Positions 1 through 6,167 of a stretch of 32,000 nucleotides of DNA are shown in pieces (within the stretch, counting starts at the first letter, position 1; each line of letters starts with the position of its first letter). Origin of the DNA: an uncultured archaeon (GTDB taxonomy: Archaea; Asgardarchaeota; Thorarchaeia; Thorarchaeales; CAZPUN01); the NCBI GenBank assembly GCA_964589775.1, contig CAZPUN010000013.1, positions 30,001-62,000 on the forward strand, in the 5' to 3' direction. The notes beneath the pieces were generated by a model. The model did not search any database. It had not been told where the DNA came from and worked only from the letters and a program-made list of their open reading frames with translations. The position numbers and the translations under genes were made by a program.

Positions 1-614
1 ACACGAGGATCTAAAAGTTCCTTGAATTTAAGGTCATTGGAAATTCCAATTATAGATACACGAGCCTTATTTAGCGTTGTATTTAATCGCGTAAGATTAT
101 AAAGTACATCATTACCAGTGGTATTATTCTTTTTAACAATCTGATCAACTTCATCTAAAACCACAATAAGTAATTGCTCCTTCTCATCAAGCTTTGAAGT
201 GAAAATATTATAAACTTCATCAGTGGGAAGGCCAGTAAACGGAACTTCGGTACCTACGGCTTCACAAAGACGAGCAAGAACTCTATAACTTGTACCAACT
301 AATCGACAATTAATATATGCAACAAGAGGAGTCTCAAGATCAGGGATTTCTTTAGCTTTATTCACTAAATGATTGAGAACATACTTAGATACAGCAGTTT
401 TTCCAGTACCGGTTTTGCCATACAGAAGAATATTACTGGGAGTAGCGCCTTGTAATGCAGGGCCTAAGATCATAGCTAGTTTTTCCATTTGCTCTTCACG
501 ATAGGGCAATTCATCAGGAATATATGATGGCCTTAATACATTACGATCCTTAAATATGCCACTACCTTTTACAAAGCGGTCAAACAGTTTGTCCAATGGT
601 TTATCTTGAATCAT
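1..614 (-). CDS. cdc6: Orc1/Cdc6 replication initiator (5' part; runs off the window)
   Basis: Manual translation of the minus strand from ATG 614: MIQDKPLDKLFDRFVKGSGIFKDRNVLRPSYIPDELPYRE..., Walker A LLYGKTGTGKT, YINC, Walker B IVVLDEVD, VSIIGISN, LDPRV. TGAGG SD upstream. Absent from the ORF track because it is truncated. Confidence 0.96.
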   Translation of the reverse strand, partial: MIQDKPLDKLFDRFVKGSGIFKDRNVLRPSYIPDELPYREEQMEKLAMILGPALQGATPSNILLYGKTGTGKTAVSKYVLNHLVNKAKEIPDLETPLVAYINCRLVGTSYRVLARLCEAVGTEVPFTGLPTDEVYNIFTSKLDEKEQLLIVVLDEVDQIVKKNNTTGNDVLYNLTRLNTTLNKARVSIIGISNDLKFKELLDPR

Positions 615-794
615 ATCGAAATGCCTCATTCAATTTAAGATTATTAAGCATCTTAATTATTTGAAAAATAATTACTAAGCCTTAGTATTACGCGTGTTGC
701 ACACTTATTTACAATTTGTGAATACTTGTGAATAAAAAATATAAAAAAAGGATTATGAATGCTTTATTTTGAATACAAAGGATTAATAATTAAA

Positions 795-808
795 TTCACA
801 TATGTGAA
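795..808. promoter_or_regulatory. Perfect 14-bp palindrome TTCACATATGTGAA next to ORB1
   Basis: Seen directly; 8 bp from the G-string of ORB1; shares the ACATATGT core with the palindromes at 1947 and 2167. Confidence 0.65.
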
Positions 809-816
809 ACATCAAA

Positions 817-838
817 CCCCTTGATTTCCACTGGAAAA
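817..838 (-). promoter_or_regulatory. Origin recognition box ORB1
   Basis: Minus strand reads TTTTCCAGTGGAAATCAAGGGG, matching the archaeal ORB consensus (TTCCAGTGGAAA plus G-string); about 200 bp upstream of cdc6. Confidence 0.92.
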
Positions 839-1126
839 TAAAAATAAGAATGCATAACGGATAATTTCTAAGAGATAAGAATTGTGAATAGATAAAATGT
901 TGTGAATTTTGTATAAAACTAAATATTTCTAAGAAAGAACTTAATAAAATATATTTTTAAAAAATAAAGTGTTATAAATGGATATTTATAAAAAATAGGA
1001 GTAATATTCCATTAGACAATATTACAAAAATATTTATCAAATATCACAATATATATAATTCACAGATAATCATTTAAATATGTGAATAACAAGATTAACA
1101 TGGTATTTTGTGAATTGGTGAATAAG

Positions 1127-1582
1127 ATGCCGGGCAAAAAATTAAAGATAGAATATGAGGATCCTGAAACAGATGACAAAGTCGTTATTGTAATAGAGGG
1201 ATCCTTAAAAAGTGCCCGGAAAATCTTAGATTCAATTATCTCACAACAAAATGAAGCTGAAGAAAGGCCTGAATCAGTAAATGATGTAGATATTGAATCA
1301 ATGACAACAAAAGATAAACTAACATACATTATTGTATCAACTTTGAAAAATGGTTGGTTCACATCACAAGATGTAAGTGATTTCTATAAAGATACGTTTA
1401 AAACAGAAATTTCAATGAGCACAATTTCGACCTATTTAAATAGGTTATGGCAAAAAGGTAGCGGAATTTTAGATAGATCCGGAAATAGAACAGGATATAA
1501 ATATAGATTACGTACAGAATTAAAAAAGGTGCAAAAATTAATCAAGAAATATGAATCAATAGAGATCCAAGTAGAACATTAA
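1127..1582 (+). CDS. Uncharacterised protein with C-terminal winged helix-turn-helix domain
   Basis: WFTSQDVSDFYKDTFKTEISMSTISTYLNRLWQKGSGILDRSGNRTGYKYRL has wHTH helix-helix-wing pattern. ATG 1127 with GGTGA SD preferred over the track start at 1082. Confidence 0.8.
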   Translation: MPGKKLKIEYEDPETDDKVVIVIEGSLKSARKILDSIISQQNEAEERPESVNDVDIESMTTKDKLTYIIVSTLKNGWFTSQDVSDFYKDTFKTEISMSTISTYLNRLWQKGSGILDRSGNRTGYKYRLRTELKKVQKLIKKYESIEIQVEH

Positions 1583-1624
1583 GTAATACAAACAATTTTC
1601 AAATTAAATTCCAATACAAAATAC

Positions 1625-1918
1625 ATGTTACTTTATGTATACGATGTTGACCAAAAAAGCCCAACATATACTAATGCAAGACGAATTTCCTTTTTCAAAA
1701 AGATATATGGATATAAGTACAAATGGAAAGGGAAATATGGAAATAAAGTGAGATTAAAAGAAGGCCTCATACATCTATCTGAAGATATAGAACGTGTTGC
1801 AGATAGCGTCTTAATGGTTCCAGATCATTTGAAGGAAGTATTCGATAATGTTTTTTTGGAATATCAGGACATGATTAAATTCAGGGTATTTAGAATTATC
1901 GATGAAAGAAATTATTAA
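1625..1918 (+). CDS. Small Cas2/VapD-like (ferredoxin-fold) protein, not CRISPR-associated here
   Basis: 97 aa; N-terminal hydrophobic strand ending YD (MLLYVYDV), then a basic helix (RRISFFKKIYGY) and an RVADSVLMV motif resembling the Cas2 R-x-Q-x-S-V strand. Confidence 0.55.
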   Translation: MLLYVYDVDQKSPTYTNARRISFFKKIYGYKYKWKGKYGNKVRLKEGLIHLSEDIERVADSVLMVPDHLKEVFDNVFLEYQDMIKFRVFRIIDERNY

Positions 1919-1946
1919 AAATAATAATTTAAATAAAATTAATAAG

Positions 1947-1964
1947 TTAGAACATATGTTCTAA
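1947..1964. promoter_or_regulatory. Perfect 18-bp palindrome TTAGAACATATGTTCTAA
   Basis: Seen directly; 1949-1967 is identical to 2167-2185 (19 bp). Confidence 0.75.
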
Positions 1965-1982
1965 AATAAATTGACCTTCACA

Positions 1983-2003
1983 CCCCATGATTTCGTATGG
2001 AAG
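1983..2003 (-). promoter_or_regulatory. Degenerate origin recognition box ORB2
   Basis: Minus strand reads CTTCCATACGAAATCATGGGG; same spacing from TTCCA to GAAATCA to GGGG as ORB1 and ORB3. Confidence 0.75.
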
Positions 2004-2135
2004 AAAAATATGATTTATTTAAAAGTTTATTTAAATAATCAAAAAATATGATATACCCCATTAGTATATAATTTTTTTATATTTAAACATTTGTATTATA
2101 TTGTAACAAATTTTATCCTATATGATCATTTTATA
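2004..2135. other. Putative duplex-unwinding element of oriC
   Basis: About 130 bp of very AT-rich non-coding DNA bracketed by oppositely oriented ORB2 and ORB3. Confidence 0.7.
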
Positions 2136-2156
2136 GTTCCAATGGAAATCAAGGGG
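2136..2156 (+). promoter_or_regulatory. Origin recognition box ORB3
   Basis: GTTCCAATGGAAATCAAGGGG; one mismatch to the ORB1 core, opposite orientation. Confidence 0.9.
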
Positions 2157-2166
2157 AAGTAGTCTA

Positions 2167-2180
2167 AGAACATATGTTCT
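2167..2180. promoter_or_regulatory. Perfect 14-bp palindrome AGAACATATGTTCT
   Basis: 10 bp from the ORB3 G-string; second copy of the 1949 element. Confidence 0.75.
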
Positions 2181-2245
2181 AAAATGACTCAAATAAAAAC
2201 TGTAATAAATGAAAATTATTAATCTTGACACATATTTGAAGGACG

Positions 2246-4135
2246 GTGATTAATAAATTGGCGAAGCCGAAAAACATTCTGAAAGGTTCCCAAGGTGATA
2301 AATTACTTTTGTTAGGAAATGAGGCCATAGCAAGAGGTGTATTAGAAGCGGGAGTTGGTGTTGCTACTACTTACCCTGGAACTCCTTCTTCTGAAATTGC
2401 GGATACTTTAAGTGGTATGGCCTCTGAAGCTGGTTATTATTTTGAATATTCTGCAAATGAAAAAGTAGCGGTTGAGGTTGCAGGTAGTGCTGCCGTAGCA
2501 AAAATAAGATCTTTTGTCTCCATGAAGCATGTGGGATTAAATGTTGCTGCAGATCCATTCATGACTTTGGCATATGTTGGTGTTCGTGCGGGTATGATTA
2601 TTCTAAGTGCTGATGACCCTTCAATGTGGAGTAGTCAAAATGAGCAAGACAATCGATATTATTCGTTGCTTTCTGGCATGCCTATGGTAGAAGCTGCAAA
2701 TCCACAAGAGGCCAAAGATTTTATCTTGGATGCATATGATTTTTCTGAGAAAATAGAAATGCCGATTCTATTTAGAACTACAACACGTTTGAATCATACT
2801 CGTGCACCTGTAACCTTAGGTCCCCGAAGGCCTATTGAAACAATTGGTGACTTTATTAAAGAGCCAGGTCGATTCGTACCGGTTCCCTCTGTGGCTCGCA
2901 AGCGACATCTTGTTGTTCTTGAAAATCTTAAAAAAGCTGAAGAATTATCTTACAAGACCAATTTTAATAAAACATTTGGTGAAGGCTCAATTGGTATTAT
3001 CACATCTGGTGTTGGTTTTAACTATACTATGGAAGCAATAAAATTGTTAGATCTTGATGCAGAAGTTCTTAAATTAGGAATGACAAATCCCCTTCCAAAA
3101 GATTTGATTTCCGATTTTCTAAAGCGTCACAAAAAGATCTTTATTGTTGAGGAATTAGAACCTTATTTAGAACTCAACGTAAGATCATTAGCAAAGGATG
3201 TTGCACCAACTGTAGAAATTTTTGGAAAATATACCGGTCATATTCCTAGGTATTATGAATTAAATACTCGAAAAGTTTTGGAAGGCCTATCATCTGCATT
3301 TCATTTGGAAATACCATTTAATTTCAAAAAGGTTGATGAATTATATAGTTCTATTTCATCTGAATTACCTCCGCGACCTCCTGTCTTGTGTGCCGGATGT
3401 CCTCATCGTGCAACATTTTATGAAATAAAAAAGGCAACTTTCAATAAAGGAATTTATCCAAGTGATATTGGCTGTTATACCTTAGCTATTCAAGATCCAC
3501 TTCACATGGCTGATATTTTGTTCTGTATGGGTAGCTCTGTTAGTACAGCCGCAGGTCTTTCAAAAGTTACTGATAAGACTGTTGTTGCAGCCATTGGTGA
3601 CTCTACATTCTTCCATACTGGTATTCCTGCTTTAGTAAGCGCTGTTTACAACAAACATCATTTCACATTAGCTATTCTTGATAATCGTACAACAGCAATG
3701 ACTGGACATCAGCCTCATCCTGGTATTGGTATTACCGGAATGCATGAGCAAGGCGAAAAAATTGACATTGAATCCGTAGTTAAGGGAATTGGCGTTAAGA
3801 ATGTTGTAAAAATAAATCCATTCAAGGTTCGTGAATCTATTAATGCAATTCGAGCTGCAACTAGAACCGAAGGTGTATCTGTGGTTATTTCAGAAGCTCC
3901 TTGTGCATTAGTTGATGTGGCTGAAAAACGAAAGAAGGGCGAAAAAATAACACCATATGTCGTAGTACCTGAATTATGTATCGGTTGTAAGATCTGTATT
4001 GATCAACTCGGTTGTCCAGCTATTTATTGGAATGAATCTACTGTCAAAGCAGAAGTAGACATAACTCAATGTACTGGATGCAGTGTTTGTGCTCAAATAT
4101 GTCCTAAAGATGCTTTCAAACTAAAGGAGGATTAA
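2246..4135 (+). CDS. iorA: Indolepyruvate:ferredoxin oxidoreductase alpha subunit
   Basis: GNEAIARG, YPGTPSSEI, MKHVGLNVAAD, SSQNEQD, CAGCPHR, TPP motif GDSTFFHTG...DNRTTAMTG, two C-terminal 4Fe-4S motifs. Confidence 0.96.
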   Translation: MINKLAKPKNILKGSQGDKLLLLGNEAIARGVLEAGVGVATTYPGTPSSEIADTLSGMASEAGYYFEYSANEKVAVEVAGSAAVAKIRSFVSMKHVGLNVAADPFMTLAYVGVRAGMIILSADDPSMWSSQNEQDNRYYSLLSGMPMVEAANPQEAKDFILDAYDFSEKIEMPILFRTTTRLNHTRAPVTLGPRRPIETIGDFIKEPGRFVPVPSVARKRHLVVLENLKKAEELSYKTNFNKTFGEGSIGIITSGVGFNYTMEAIKLLDLDAEVLKLGMTNPLPKDLISDFLKRHKKIFIVEELEPYLELNVRSLAKDVAPTVEIFGKYTGHIPRYYELNTRKVLEGLSSAFHLEIPFNFKKVDELYSSISSELPPRPPVLCAGCPHRATFYEIKKATFNKGIYPSDIGCYTLAIQDPLHMADILFCMGSSVSTAAGLSKVTDKTVVAAIGDSTFFHTGIPALVSAVYNKHHFTLAILDNRTTAMTGHQPHPGIGITGMHEQGEKIDIESVVKGIGVKNVVKINPFKVRESINAIRAATRTEGVSVVISEAPCALVDVAEKRKKGEKITPYVVVPELCIGCKICIDQLGCPAIYWNESTVKAEVDITQCTGCSVCAQICPKDAFKLKED

Positions 4136-4137
4136 AA

Positions 4138-4728
4138 TTGGAAAAGTATGAAATTTCTCTAGTTGGTGTTGGTGGTCAAGGTATTTTAACCGCAGCAGAA
4201 CTTTTAGCAAAGTGTGCTATGCTAGATGGTCATAATGTTAGAGTCGGGGAAATTCATGGTATGGCACAACGTGGCGGAATTGTTCAAAGTTCTGTTAGAA
4301 TCGGAAAAGATGTTTATGGCCCTATAATTTCTGAAGGTATGGCTGACCTTATTATTGGTTTTGAACCTGTTGAGGCAATGAGGGGTCTTTCTTTTGCATC
4401 CGAAAAAACAATTGTTCTTCTTAATGAACATATTGTTTATCCTACTGTTGTATCTATGGGTAAAGCAAAATATCCTGATATGGACTACATAAAATCTTCC
4501 ATCAAAAAGTTCACTTCAAAACTTTATTCATTTAATGCTATGGATCTTGCATTGGAAGCTGGAGCTGCCATTACTATGAATTTAGTCTTACTGGGCGCGG
4601 CATTTAAAATCGGCAATATTGGCTTAAATAAAGAATCTATGGAATCAATTATCACTTCGACGTTTCCAGAGCGTTTCAAGAAAACCAACCTAAAAGCATT
4701 CAATCTTGGCTATGATTATTTCAAATAA
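4138..4728 (+). CDS. iorB: Indolepyruvate:ferredoxin oxidoreductase beta subunit
   Basis: GVGGQG, EIHGMAQRGG, NLKAFNLG; directly follows iorA. Confidence 0.95.
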   Translation: MEKYEISLVGVGGQGILTAAELLAKCAMLDGHNVRVGEIHGMAQRGGIVQSSVRIGKDVYGPIISEGMADLIIGFEPVEAMRGLSFASEKTIVLLNEHIVYPTVVSMGKAKYPDMDYIKSSIKKFTSKLYSFNAMDLALEAGAAITMNLVLLGAAFKIGNIGLNKESMESIITSTFPERFKKTNLKAFNLGYDYFK

Positions 4729-4775
4729 AATTATTAAAAAAATTAGGAATAATAAATATAATATTCCTATTATTT

Positions 4776-6167
4776 TTATTTTCTTTTTGCATATTGGTAC
4801 ATTAAACCTAATACTTTTGCTGCAGTTTGTGGATCATTATATGTTGGTATTCTATGCTGTTCCAAAAATTCTGTTCCTGGTTTTGCAATTTCTCCTGCCA
4901 TCCATACCGCGATAACTGGCTTTTCTGTCTTTGAATCTTTTATCGCTTCATAAACACCTTCTGCATGTTCTGTTCTTGTCATTCCCATGAATGTTGGTAC
5001 TACGCAACATACAATTACTGCATCTACATTTTTATCTTCAAGTGCAATCTTTGTAGCATTATAATAGTCTTTCTTATTTCCACTTGCAATTACATCAATT
5101 GGATTTGATTTTGACGCAATCGGTATTAATGTCTCATCTAATTTCTTTCTTGATTCTTGCGTAAATGTAGCTAGTGTTAAACCATACTTTGATAGTTCAT
5201 CAGTTGTAAGAACTCCTGCTCCCCCTGCATTCGTTATAATTGCAACTTTATTACCTTTCGGGAGATTCTGAAAAGCAAATCCTAACGAGACATTAAATAG
5301 GTCATACAAATTATCTACTTCAATTGCTCCGACTTGTTTTATTACAGCTTCAAAAATCTTATGTGATCCTGCTAATGATCCTGTATGTGATGAAACTGCT
5401 TTTGCACCCTCTGGTGATTTTCCTGCTTTTAAAATTACTAATGGTTTTTTCTCAGATGCATATTTTGCAGCATCCATAAACTCTCTTCCATCTTTTACTC
5501 CTTCTACATATAATGCAATTACTTTTGTATGTTTGTCCTCTGAAATGATTTTTAATAATTCTGAAAATCCTATATCTGTGGAATTTCCAATACTTGCAAA
5601 TTTGCTTAGACCAATACCCCGTTCTCTTAACCAGTATACTGAAGCTGCACCAAGAGCTCCGCTTTGTGAAATGAATGAAATATCTCCTTTATCTGGATCC
5701 ATAATAAATGTACCATTAAAATTAATTGTCTTATTTATAATTCCAACACAATTTGGCCCTATGAATCTTATATTATATTTTTTCGCAATTTCTTTCAATG
5801 AATTTTCTAATTTTTCTCCCTCTTCTCCAATTTCACTAAATCCTCCTGATAAGACTACAGCATGATGTATGTTTTTCTTATGTAGATCCTCAAATAGATC
5901 TGGAATATATTTTGCAGGAATTATTATTATTGCTAAATCAATATCGTCTGGTATATCTAAAACTGATTTGTAAGCTTTTACACCTAATATTTCATCATCT
6001 GACCTTGATATAGGATATATTGTTATTTCTGCCTTTTGTAAATTCTTCATTATCGTGTATCCAAACTTTTCAGGATTGTTTGATGCACCCACTAACGCTA
6101 CTTTTTTGGGATAAAAGAATTTTTCTAATAAATTTATTAAATTTGTTTTATTTAACAAATTTATCAA
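4776..6167 (-). CDS. acdA: Acetate/acyl-CoA ligase (ADP-forming) alpha subunit
   Basis: CoA-binding VGAS, GPNCVG, SQSGALG, phospho-His motif SHTGSLAG, TNAGGAG, SNPIDV. Confidence 0.92.
   Translation of the reverse strand: MINLLNKTNLINLLEKFFYPKKVALVGASNNPEKFGYTIMKNLQKAEITIYPISRSDDEILGVKAYKSVLDIPDDIDLAIIIIPAKYIPDLFEDLHKKNIHHAVVLSGGFSEIGEEGEKLENSLKEIAKKYNIRFIGPNCVGIINKTINFNGTFIMDPDKGDISFISQSGALGAASVYWLRERGIGLSKFASIGNSTDIGFSELLKIISEDKHTKVIALYVEGVKDGREFMDAAKYASEKKPLVILKAGKSPEGAKAVSSHTGSLAGSHKIFEAVIKQVGAIEVDNLYDLFNVSLGFAFQNLPKGNKVAIITNAGGAGVLTTDELSKYGLTLATFTQESRKKLDETLIPIASKSNPIDVIASGNKKDYYNATKIALEDKNVDAVIVCCVVPTFMGMTRTEHAEGVYEAIKDSKTEKPVIAVWMAGEIAKPGTEFLEQHRIPTYNDPQTAAKVLGLMYQYAKRK

Follow-up and report, generated by a model that had tools for sequence, protein, structure and literature searches.

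Organisation of the origin region

The window analysed here is a stretch of 32,000 nucleotides, corresponding to positions 30001-62000 of contig C13 of an uncultured thorarchaeial genome (G000; 2.16 Mb in 64 contigs, 35% G+C), and coordinates given without a contig name refer to this window. Close to its left end, an orc1/cdc6 gene and three origin recognition boxes (ORBs) are found together with two small genes encoding a winged helix-turn-helix (wHTH) protein and a protein of 97 aa (p97). The order orc1/cdc6, ORB1, wHTH gene, p97 gene, and an inverted ORB2/AT-rich/ORB3 core had been proposed in an earlier reading of the sequence alone (the original prediction) and was recovered at the same positions. 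Both motif families claimed in addition to the ORBs are present as well, namely an array of TGTGAAT words and the palindrome AGAACATATGTTCT (PAL), which brackets the core. With moderate confidence we consider the region to be an Orc1-1-dependent chromosomal replication origin of a deep-branching Thorarchaeote that carries two resident accessory genes, which would act via TGTGAAY and PAL.

The orc1/cdc6 gene is of the Orc1-1 type and reaches into the window on the minus strand with its N-terminal 209 codons (3..629), which give AAA+ Pfam matches, while the full open reading frame (ORF) of 419 aa (C13:29373-30629, minus strand) extends leftward beyond the window. Its start codon ends at 629, 187 bp from ORB1, and its product shares 50-68% identity with the orc1 products encoded beside the ORBs of other Asgard genomes and Bathyarchaeia. 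A second orc1 paralogue of G000 on contig C12 is 31% identical, and neither an ORB nor TGTGAAT was found near it.

ORB1 (ACCCCTTGATTTCCACTGGAAAA; 816..838, plus strand) was identified by an ORB pattern scan and is situated inside the TGTGAAT-rich intergenic region. ORB2 (CACCCCATGATTTCGTATGGAAG; 1981..2003, plus strand) has a degenerate core with two mismatches, yet matches ORB2 of the relatives in every column of the alignment. ORB3 (2136..2157, minus strand), inverted relative to ORB1 and ORB2, was recognised as an inverted repeat, in the ORB scan, and in the alignment with the relatives. ORB2 and ORB3 flank an AT-rich spacer (2004..2135; 81-88% A+T in 100-nt windows), the presumed duplex-unwinding element (DUE), whose length of approximately 130 bp is kept in the aligned relatives; the same layout was observed in all 13 of them. 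Scanning the whole of G000 with a 20-nt ORB pattern and up to three mismatches returned the three origin sites and four poorer, isolated matches at the three-mismatch limit. The next gene to the right, iorA, starts at 2246. No RNA family was found in an Rfam scan of positions 1-5000.

From 1 to approximately 32 kb of C13, AT skew has a positive sign, which turns mostly negative between 32 and 58 kb. The sign change coincides with the AT-rich spacer and is the sole hint that replication may initiate at this locus. GC skew, which the original prediction had suggested as a check, has no inflection on the 70-kb contig and is uninformative. All anatomical elements of an Orc1-type oriC are present in the region, and the multiple ORBs, the inverted pair around a spacer of up to 88% A+T, the adjacent orc1-1 gene, and the switch in AT skew are counted in favour of reading it as an origin. 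Canonical archaeal oriC regions (the Orc1-1 origin of Pyrococcus, oriC1 of Sulfolobus and Aeropyrum) likewise contain ORBs in which a GGGGT/ACCCC string accompanies a TTCCAnTGGAAA dyad, and they share the inverted ORB pair around an AT-rich unwinding element and the adjacent orc1/cdc6 gene. In contrast to these, two protein-coding genes part ORB1 from the core (by approximately 4 kb in the main family of the Thorarchaeia and by 1.1 kb here), the origin includes two additional conserved motif families, and most origins of the Thorarchaeia lack an adjacent orc1 gene.

Microsynteny of the wHTH gene across archaea

In the genome library used, the thorarchaeial class comprises one order with 87 species, of which G000 is the sole member of family f1 and the other 86 constitute family f2. 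The Asgard survey covered 332 genomes with a completeness of at least 80%. Of 60 relatives, 51 yielded a member of the wHTH family (at class level, 70 of 86), and the family profile matches 146 of the 332 Asgard genomes, where present nearly always in a single copy. Most Asgard families are represented; an exception is given by the largest one, which is essentially devoid of the gene (5 of 118 genomes, weak matches only). Members are named from Heimdallarchaeum aukensis, other Heimdallarchaeaceae, Njordarchaeales, and Borrarchaeum, and further members derive from metagenome-assembled genomes (MAGs) labelled Odinarchaeota, Hermodarchaeota, or Asgardarchaeum. A hidden Markov model search of 1.84 billion representatives returned 410 clusters, in which the named members from outside the Asgard archaea belong to Syntropharchaeia, Nitrosopumilus (annotated as BlaI/MecI/CopY regulator), and Thermoprotei. 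In Bathyarchaeia, 46 of the 81 genomes sampled carry the gene.

Among 20 loci fetched from other Asgard families, orc1-1 (49-61% identical) is located within 4.5 kb of the wHTH gene in 18. The relative orientation of the two genes varies between divergent, tandem, and convergent, and most of these loci have full ORBs on the flanks of the wHTH gene. For the Bathyarchaeia, orc1 is the divergent neighbour within 1.5 kb in 27 of 30 wHTH loci, usually with ORB cores in between, and two of the three exceptions are contig ends. On these counts the predicted synteny with cdc6 is strongly borne out for the wHTH gene, which may have resided beside ORB-type origins since before the divergence of Asgard archaea and Bathyarchaeia. 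An additional small wHTH gene (L052:7560-7860, minus strand) is placed between ORB3 and the conserved wHTH gene in one Odinarchaeia-like genome.

Separation of orc1-1 from the origin in the main thorarchaeial family

In f2, no orc1 gene occurs within 7 kb of the wHTH locus. The orc1-1 orthologue of this family (62-68% identical) is situated 60 kb to 1 Mb from the ORB cluster (loci L097-L101); it adjoins the PolD small-subunit gene in two of these five loci, and an orc1 paralogue is found 12-21 kb away. The short region upstream of the relocated gene contains none to three mini-ORB cores devoid of the G-string, which possibly serve Orc1 autoregulation. A TGTGAAT cluster was not found at the relocated orc1-1 genes.

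The order ORB1, TGTGAAT array, wHTH gene, p97 gene, PAL, ORB2, DUE, ORB3, and PAL is retained in f2, with a full ORB upstream of the wHTH gene and one or two ORBs between p97 and iorA. Two minus-strand genes, a saccharopine-dehydrogenase-like and an AlaDH/LKR-like gene, are located between wHTH and p97 (L025-L038, e.g., L027:7977-10607). This insertion splits the origin into ORB sites approximately 4 kb apart, whereas the compact layout of G000 is that of the other Asgard classes. In 13 relatives and G000, the downstream block reads p97 stop codon, (T)AGAACAYGTGTTC, ACCCC-ORB2, approximately 130 bp of AT-rich DNA, ORB3-GGGGT, TAGAACACGTGTTCTAA, and iorA. Five thorarchaeial genomes lacking both small genes were checked. 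Due to the fact that the orthologous iorA is also missing from them (only paralogues of 36-40% identity are present), the locus is probably unassembled in these genomes and not lost. In locus L033 (G006:C17:147000-165000), the wHTH gene is inverted relative to p97 and iorA, which represents a local inversion within the origin locus.

Upon separation of orc1 and origin, both small genes and both extra motif families remain with the ORBs. Family f2 can therefore be regarded as a natural experiment that distinguishes what belongs to the origin from what belongs to the orc1 gene. Homologues occurring independently of cdc6 and ORBs had been named as an outcome that would speak against a function at the origin; in f2 an adjacent cdc6 is indeed missing, yet the homologues lie among ORBs in 14 of 14 loci examined. 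Regulation of cdc6 transcription, which the original prediction had offered as one of two roles of the wHTH protein, is disfavoured. The array stayed with the wHTH gene and ORB1, and since the relocated orc1-1 genes lack the motif, control of cdc6 is rejected as the main role of TGTGAAT.

The TGTGAAT array and the wHTH protein

A motif scan of the genome delimited an iteron-like array of ten TGTGAAT(A) copies on both strands (716..1123). Eight copies are on the plus strand, at 717-723, 727-733, 803-809 (TGTGAAA), 883-889, 901-907, 1081-1087, 1109-1115, and 1117-1123 (GGTGAAT), and two on the minus strand, at 794-800 and 1058-1064. For the words TGTGAAT, TTGTGAAT, and TGTGAATA this array is the densest cluster genome-wide. 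A second TGTGAAT cluster, on contig C33, where a small intergenic context is missing, was judged not meaningful. The TGTGAATAA sequences at 727-735 and 1081-1089 equal the consensus of the bacterial DnaA box, TGTGNATAA (reverse of TTATNCACA). Since DnaA is, to our knowledge, absent from archaea, this match is taken as a coincidence.

The non-coding block of approximately 650 bp upstream of the wHTH gene is conserved in 14 class relatives and contains at least eight TGTGAAT copies at fixed alignment columns, one of which directly precedes the wHTH start. The positions around ORB1 and the wHTH promoter are kept in all 14 class relatives examined, and the TGTGAAA copy at 803-809 is located 6 nt from the G-string side of ORB1, with identical spacing in the alignment of the relatives. 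Specific to G000 is a palindromic form with ACATATGT core beside ORB1, where the relatives have a single TGTGAAT. Due to their conservation in the relatives, neither the TGTGAAT array nor PAL is considered a product of chance.

Outside the Thorarchaeia, the 750-bp flanks of 20 wHTH genes contain 47 TGTGAAY copies compared to approximately 10 expected from the rest of the loci (4.5-fold), and two scrambled control words are not enriched in the same flanks. Clusters of at least three TGTGAAY beside wHTH genes were observed in seven families, and other short repeats dominate in lineages without such clusters.

The wHTH gene (1127..1582, plus strand) encodes 151 aa when read from the ATG at 1127, the likely start; the listed GTG at 1082 falls within a motif copy. 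Its product is predicted to consist of an N-terminal module of two strands and a helix, followed by an acidic, disordered linker and, C-terminally, by a winged helix (residues 60-143). The predicted local distance difference test score (pLDDT) of the model is 78 overall and 88-93 in the winged helix, in which three helices (61-72, 80-91, and 97-111) are followed by two strands (115-118 and 125-128). The third helix, i.e., the predicted recognition helix, is the best-conserved segment of the family (S-T-x-S-T-Y-L-x-R). Most members have a length of 130-170 aa, except for those of f2 with approximately 210 aa, whose 50-60 or so extra N-terminal residues resemble, by eye, a duplicated N-terminal module. 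In NCBI, homologues of the two small proteins derive from Candidatus Thorarchaeota MAGs and are without exception annotated as hypothetical protein. Searches of Pfam, NCBIfam, PADLOC, PHROGs, and PDB sequence profiles returned nothing significant for either protein.

A less remarkable explanation is that the wHTH protein is an ordinary autoregulated transcription factor hitch-hiking beside the origin, with the TGTGAAT sites as its own operator. Its fold is compatible with such a role: Foldseek matches of the model comprise PadR, MarR, MecI/BlaI, the C-terminal domain of Cdt1, and the winged helix of Orc2 (probability 1.0, E 3e-3 to 2e-2) as well as RosR, all of them weak and generic. In case of BlaI/MecI/CopY, for which the Nitrosopumilus homologue is named, only the winged-helix part aligns and the cut-offs are missed (PF03965, 16.7 versus 22.6 bits; TIGR02698, 16.4 versus 121.95). 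One motif copy also overlaps the promoter or start region of the gene. On the other side, one or two sites suffice for an operator, whereas here 8-10 extend over 400-650 bp, interleaved at a fixed spacing with ORB1. Furthermore, adjacency to the origin outlasts changes of order and orientation across the Asgard classes and Bathyarchaeia, and the gene stays with the ORBs and not with orc1 once these are separated. We therefore regard hitch-hiking as unlikely and prefer an accessory factor acting at the origin.

Short asymmetric direct and inverted repeats next to AT-rich DNA, accompanied by a winged-helix gene with a repeat in its own promoter, which fits a logic of autorepression, are also known from plasmid iteron/Rep systems (RepA, RepE, pi). 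Accordingly, the wHTH gene, the iterons, and p97 could be a captured plasmid- or virus-like replicon that integrated beside oriC, similar to what has been proposed for Sulfolobus oriC3/WhiP. Archaea are documented to capture extrachromosomal origins (PMC4010727). Unlike such replicons, the locus is part of the chromosome, is inherited vertically, and overlies an Orc1/ORB origin. The family has essentially one copy per genome, is vertically conserved across whole classes, and is always accompanied by Orc1-type ORBs. The wHTH protein is much smaller than plasmid Rep proteins, to which no homology was detected. No integrase or mobile-element gene was seen among the ORFs read around the locus, and PHROGs matches are marginal only (E approximately 1e-3 or weaker). 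Capture is thus very unlikely as an explanation for these genes.

The 97-aa protein

The p97 gene (1625..1918, plus strand) is situated 43 bp downstream of the wHTH gene in the same orientation. According to the model (pLDDT 93), p97 is a small ferredoxin-like alpha/beta protein with the element order beta, alpha, beta-hairpin, beta-hairpin, alpha, beta. Its most conserved surface feature is a Lys/Arg-rich beta-hairpin (residues 30-47). All 16 sequences compared, from six families, have Tyr6-Asp7 where strand 1 ends, and a DS[AV]I strand is likewise conserved.

Members of the p97 family occur in 53 of 60 class relatives and in 84 of the 332 Asgard genomes, i.e., in the thorarchaeial class and five other families, and are single copy nearly everywhere they are present. 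The two genes were found together in 14 non-thorarchaeial genomes, in every one of which at most 2 kb separates p97 from the wHTH gene, and in the thorarchaeial class the distance is 0.6-3.5 kb on nearly every contig with both. The description of the two genes as a pair has to be relaxed, since p97 is confined to these 84 genomes while the wHTH family extends to 146 and to the Bathyarchaeia. This distribution suggests that p97 is a later addition in some Asgard classes. In family f14 (G166, G167, G169, and G170), ORFs of 190-200 aa located approximately 6 kb from the wHTH gene are weak matches to the p97 profile (E 6e-5 to 4e-4). Look-alike archaeal proteins of 90-100 aa, and a similar domain in Pol-beta-type nucleotidyltransferases of approximately 190 aa, are listed in the ESM Atlas, which we note as a lead only.

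The original prediction had labelled p97 as Cas2/VapD-like, and it could accordingly be a degenerate orphan Cas2/VapD-type nuclease, or a remnant of a toxin module, that lies near the origin by chance. In favour of this, p97 resembles Cas2/VapD in size, in the ferredoxin-like order of its elements, and in the acidic residue that ends strand 1, and the invariant YD and the DS[AV]I strand are as in Cas2. The top Foldseek matches are Cas2 (5h1o; E 0.03, TM 0.51-0.56) and VapD, with Cas2 chains showing the highest sequence identities (16-24%). In the VIA comparison with Cas2/VapD, Z scores of 6.5-7.2 and root-mean-square deviations of 2.4-3.0 A over 68-73 residues were obtained. These values are tied with those for S6, PII, ACT, NikR-C, and Lrp RAM domains, so that the fold match to Cas2/VapD is no better than to the latter, and the basic hairpin of p97 is an extra element.

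At the sequence level, 15 p97 members gave no Pfam match at E up to 1, and PADLOC yielded no match at E up to 10. The Cas2 profile (PF09827) finds genuine cas2 genes in 16 of 61 relatives, on contigs other than that of the p97 locus, but never p97, and has no match in G000. Profile-profile comparison by hhalign with 11 genuine thorarchaeial Cas2 proteins yielded a probability of 1.6%, because of which p97 is not filed as Cas2. No repeat array was reported in 600-2300, no cas gene, cas1 included, was recognised among the ORFs read around the locus, and no antitoxin-like partner is present there. Being single copy and strictly linked to the origin, p97 is extremely unlikely to be a Cas2/VapD relic, and the label, for which a common fold and the YD motif speak, is not supported.

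Association of the palindrome with p97

PAL-1 (1949..1962) is located just outside ORB2 and PAL-2 (2167..2180) just outside ORB3. With at most one mismatch allowed, the 14-nt AGAACATATGTTCT was found at these two origin sites only when the whole of G000 was scanned. PAL-1 aligns with GAACAYGTGTTC in 10 of 13 aligned relatives and with a degenerate copy in the other three, and f2 possesses a third copy approximately 30 nt upstream of the p97 start. In the comparisons between genomes, PAL denotes the 12-bp palindrome GAACAYRTGTTC.

Across the Asgard loci, PAL accompanies p97. It is present in five of seven loci with p97 compared to none of 13 without (Fisher p = 0.0014), or, counted by family, in five of six compared to none of nine, and in four lineages it occurs on both sides of the p97 gene. 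The p97-bearing family f15 uses a co-varying form, GTTAACATGTTAAC. Genome-wide PAL counts amount to 2-17 in class relatives (0-3 for the reversed control word), to 22-23 and 6-9 in two other p97-bearing families, and mostly to 0-3 elsewhere; in two genomes inspected, the extra sites are mostly intergenic. An apparent enrichment of PAL in Heimdallarchaeaceae was dismissed, as the one site inspected consists of EHMF codons in a PEPCK gene; in other genomes of the genus concerned, PAL recurs approximately 8 kb from the wHTH gene. In L073 (G335) and L078 (G020), which belong to different Asgard families, PAL is located upstream of an HDAC/acetoin-utilisation-type deacetylase gene, a shared site that hints at a small conserved PAL regulon.

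Candidate accessory factors at the origin

As the two genes and their motifs stay beside origins across Asgard archaea, and in case of the wHTH gene in Bathyarchaeia as well, both are good candidates for origin accessory factors. The predicted connection between the wHTH protein and one of the extra motifs is upheld insofar as each small gene co-occurs with one motif family. From this pattern we infer that the wHTH protein binds the asymmetric TGTGAAY sites as an iteron-like array. Since these sites cover the wHTH promoter and abut ORB1, we propose that binding would repress the gene itself and shape Orc1 binding or origin firing at ORB1; of the regulatory roles originally predicted, an effect on initiation is thus retained in conditional form, and that on cdc6 transcription is disfavoured. 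A dimer of the small, basic, ferredoxin-like p97 would bind, or be controlled through, GAACAYRTGTTC bracketing the ORB-DUE-ORB core.

Several observations weigh against this scheme. Co-occurrence across related genomes is not independent evidence, and neither of the folds is telling, since the winged helix is generic and many unrelated ferredoxin-like proteins are equally good matches to the p97 fold. For one Thermoprotei homologue of the wHTH gene, no orc1 is located within 6 kb. The wHTH flanks lack TGTGAAY in Odinarchaeia-like genomes, most Heimdallarchaeaceae, and family f15, which may indicate either a drifting specificity or a link that is not general. In case of PAL, p97 adjoins an ORB and has no PAL in Odinarchaeia-like genomes (in the L052 genome it ends 2 nt from an ORB), and some matches in other families are coding sequence for the peptide EHMF. 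Outside the origin, PAL occurs at only two places in G000, one of them within a coding region. The other (C31:4635-4646) overlaps the start-codon region of a gene for an Lrp/AsnC-family regulator (4191-4655, minus strand), and this regulator is a plausible alternative candidate for the protein that binds PAL.

PAL could accordingly be the operator of another regulator, e.g., of the Lrp/AsnC type, with p97 as one target whose own function is unrelated to DNA binding at the origin and consists, e.g., in binding RNA or a small ligand. Besides the overlap with the Lrp/AsnC gene start and the missing PAL beside p97 in Odinarchaeia-like genomes, the sites upstream of unrelated genes, including the HDAC-like gene in two distant genomes, fit this explanation, and Lrp RAM, ACT, PII, and NikR-C domains score like Cas2 against the p97 model (Z 5.9-7.6). 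It is at variance with a PAL enrichment that follows the presence of p97 across families, with sites on both sides of p97 in four lineages, with a variant palindrome that accompanies a divergent p97, and with the Lys/Arg-rich hairpin as the most conserved surface feature of this protein. Hence we rate an unrelated regulator as distinctly improbable, and a p97 acting through PAL at the origin remains the preferred reading.

How archaea control the initiation of replication is poorly understood. Apart from Orc1/Cdc6, the known players are limited to WhiP and, since 2025, to UBP and its ucm motif, both from Sulfolobales. No paper was found in the literature describing either of the two proteins, or origin-resident accessory genes in Asgard archaea or Bathyarchaeia. 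Provided that the wHTH protein has a function at origins, archaeal replication would possess a widespread component that escaped notice owing to its annotation as hypothetical. It is tempting to go further and to speculate, although we hold this bolder version to be rather doubtful, that the wHTH protein is an ancient second origin-binding factor inherited from an ancestor that Asgard archaea share with Bathyarchaeia and possibly with further archaea, and that it reads TGTGAAY beside ORB1 and serves with Orc1 as co-initiator or licensing regulator, with p97 and the palindrome as a second layer clamping the ORB-DUE-ORB core. If true, it would represent a missing and widely conserved initiation component in the archaeal lineage closest to eukaryotes. 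Two small soluble proteins, two short DNA motifs, and a conserved origin layout make up a defined and testable set.

For PAL and p97, the best analogue and presumably the closest functional precedent is given by ucm and UBP. In Sulfolobus, oriC1 requires the ucm motif; the small basic protein binding to it, UBP, has hundreds of further sites (PMC12141716). In both cases a non-ORB element in an Orc1 origin is combined with a small basic protein and many other genomic sites, provided that p97 binds PAL. The two systems differ in that the UBP gene is not located at the origin and in that ucm lies within the DUE (PMC12141716), whereas PAL is situated outside the ORBs. The UBP entries (9EFD-F) were not among the best 50 rows of three structure searches with p97, by which a similarity is not excluded.

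WhiP, the Cdt1-like winged-helix initiator of Sulfolobus oriC3, provides, like the plasmid iteron/Rep systems, a looser parallel for the wHTH protein, as both are winged-helix proteins encoded beside an origin, which in case of WhiP is also the origin it acts on. For the wHTH protein, the C-terminal domain of Cdt1 (3a4c; E 0.013) is one of many weak fold matches. WhiP has tandem winged helices and replaces Orc1 at an origin without ORBs, whereas the wHTH protein, predicted to possess a small N-terminal module and a single winged helix, occurs alongside Orc1 and ORBs.

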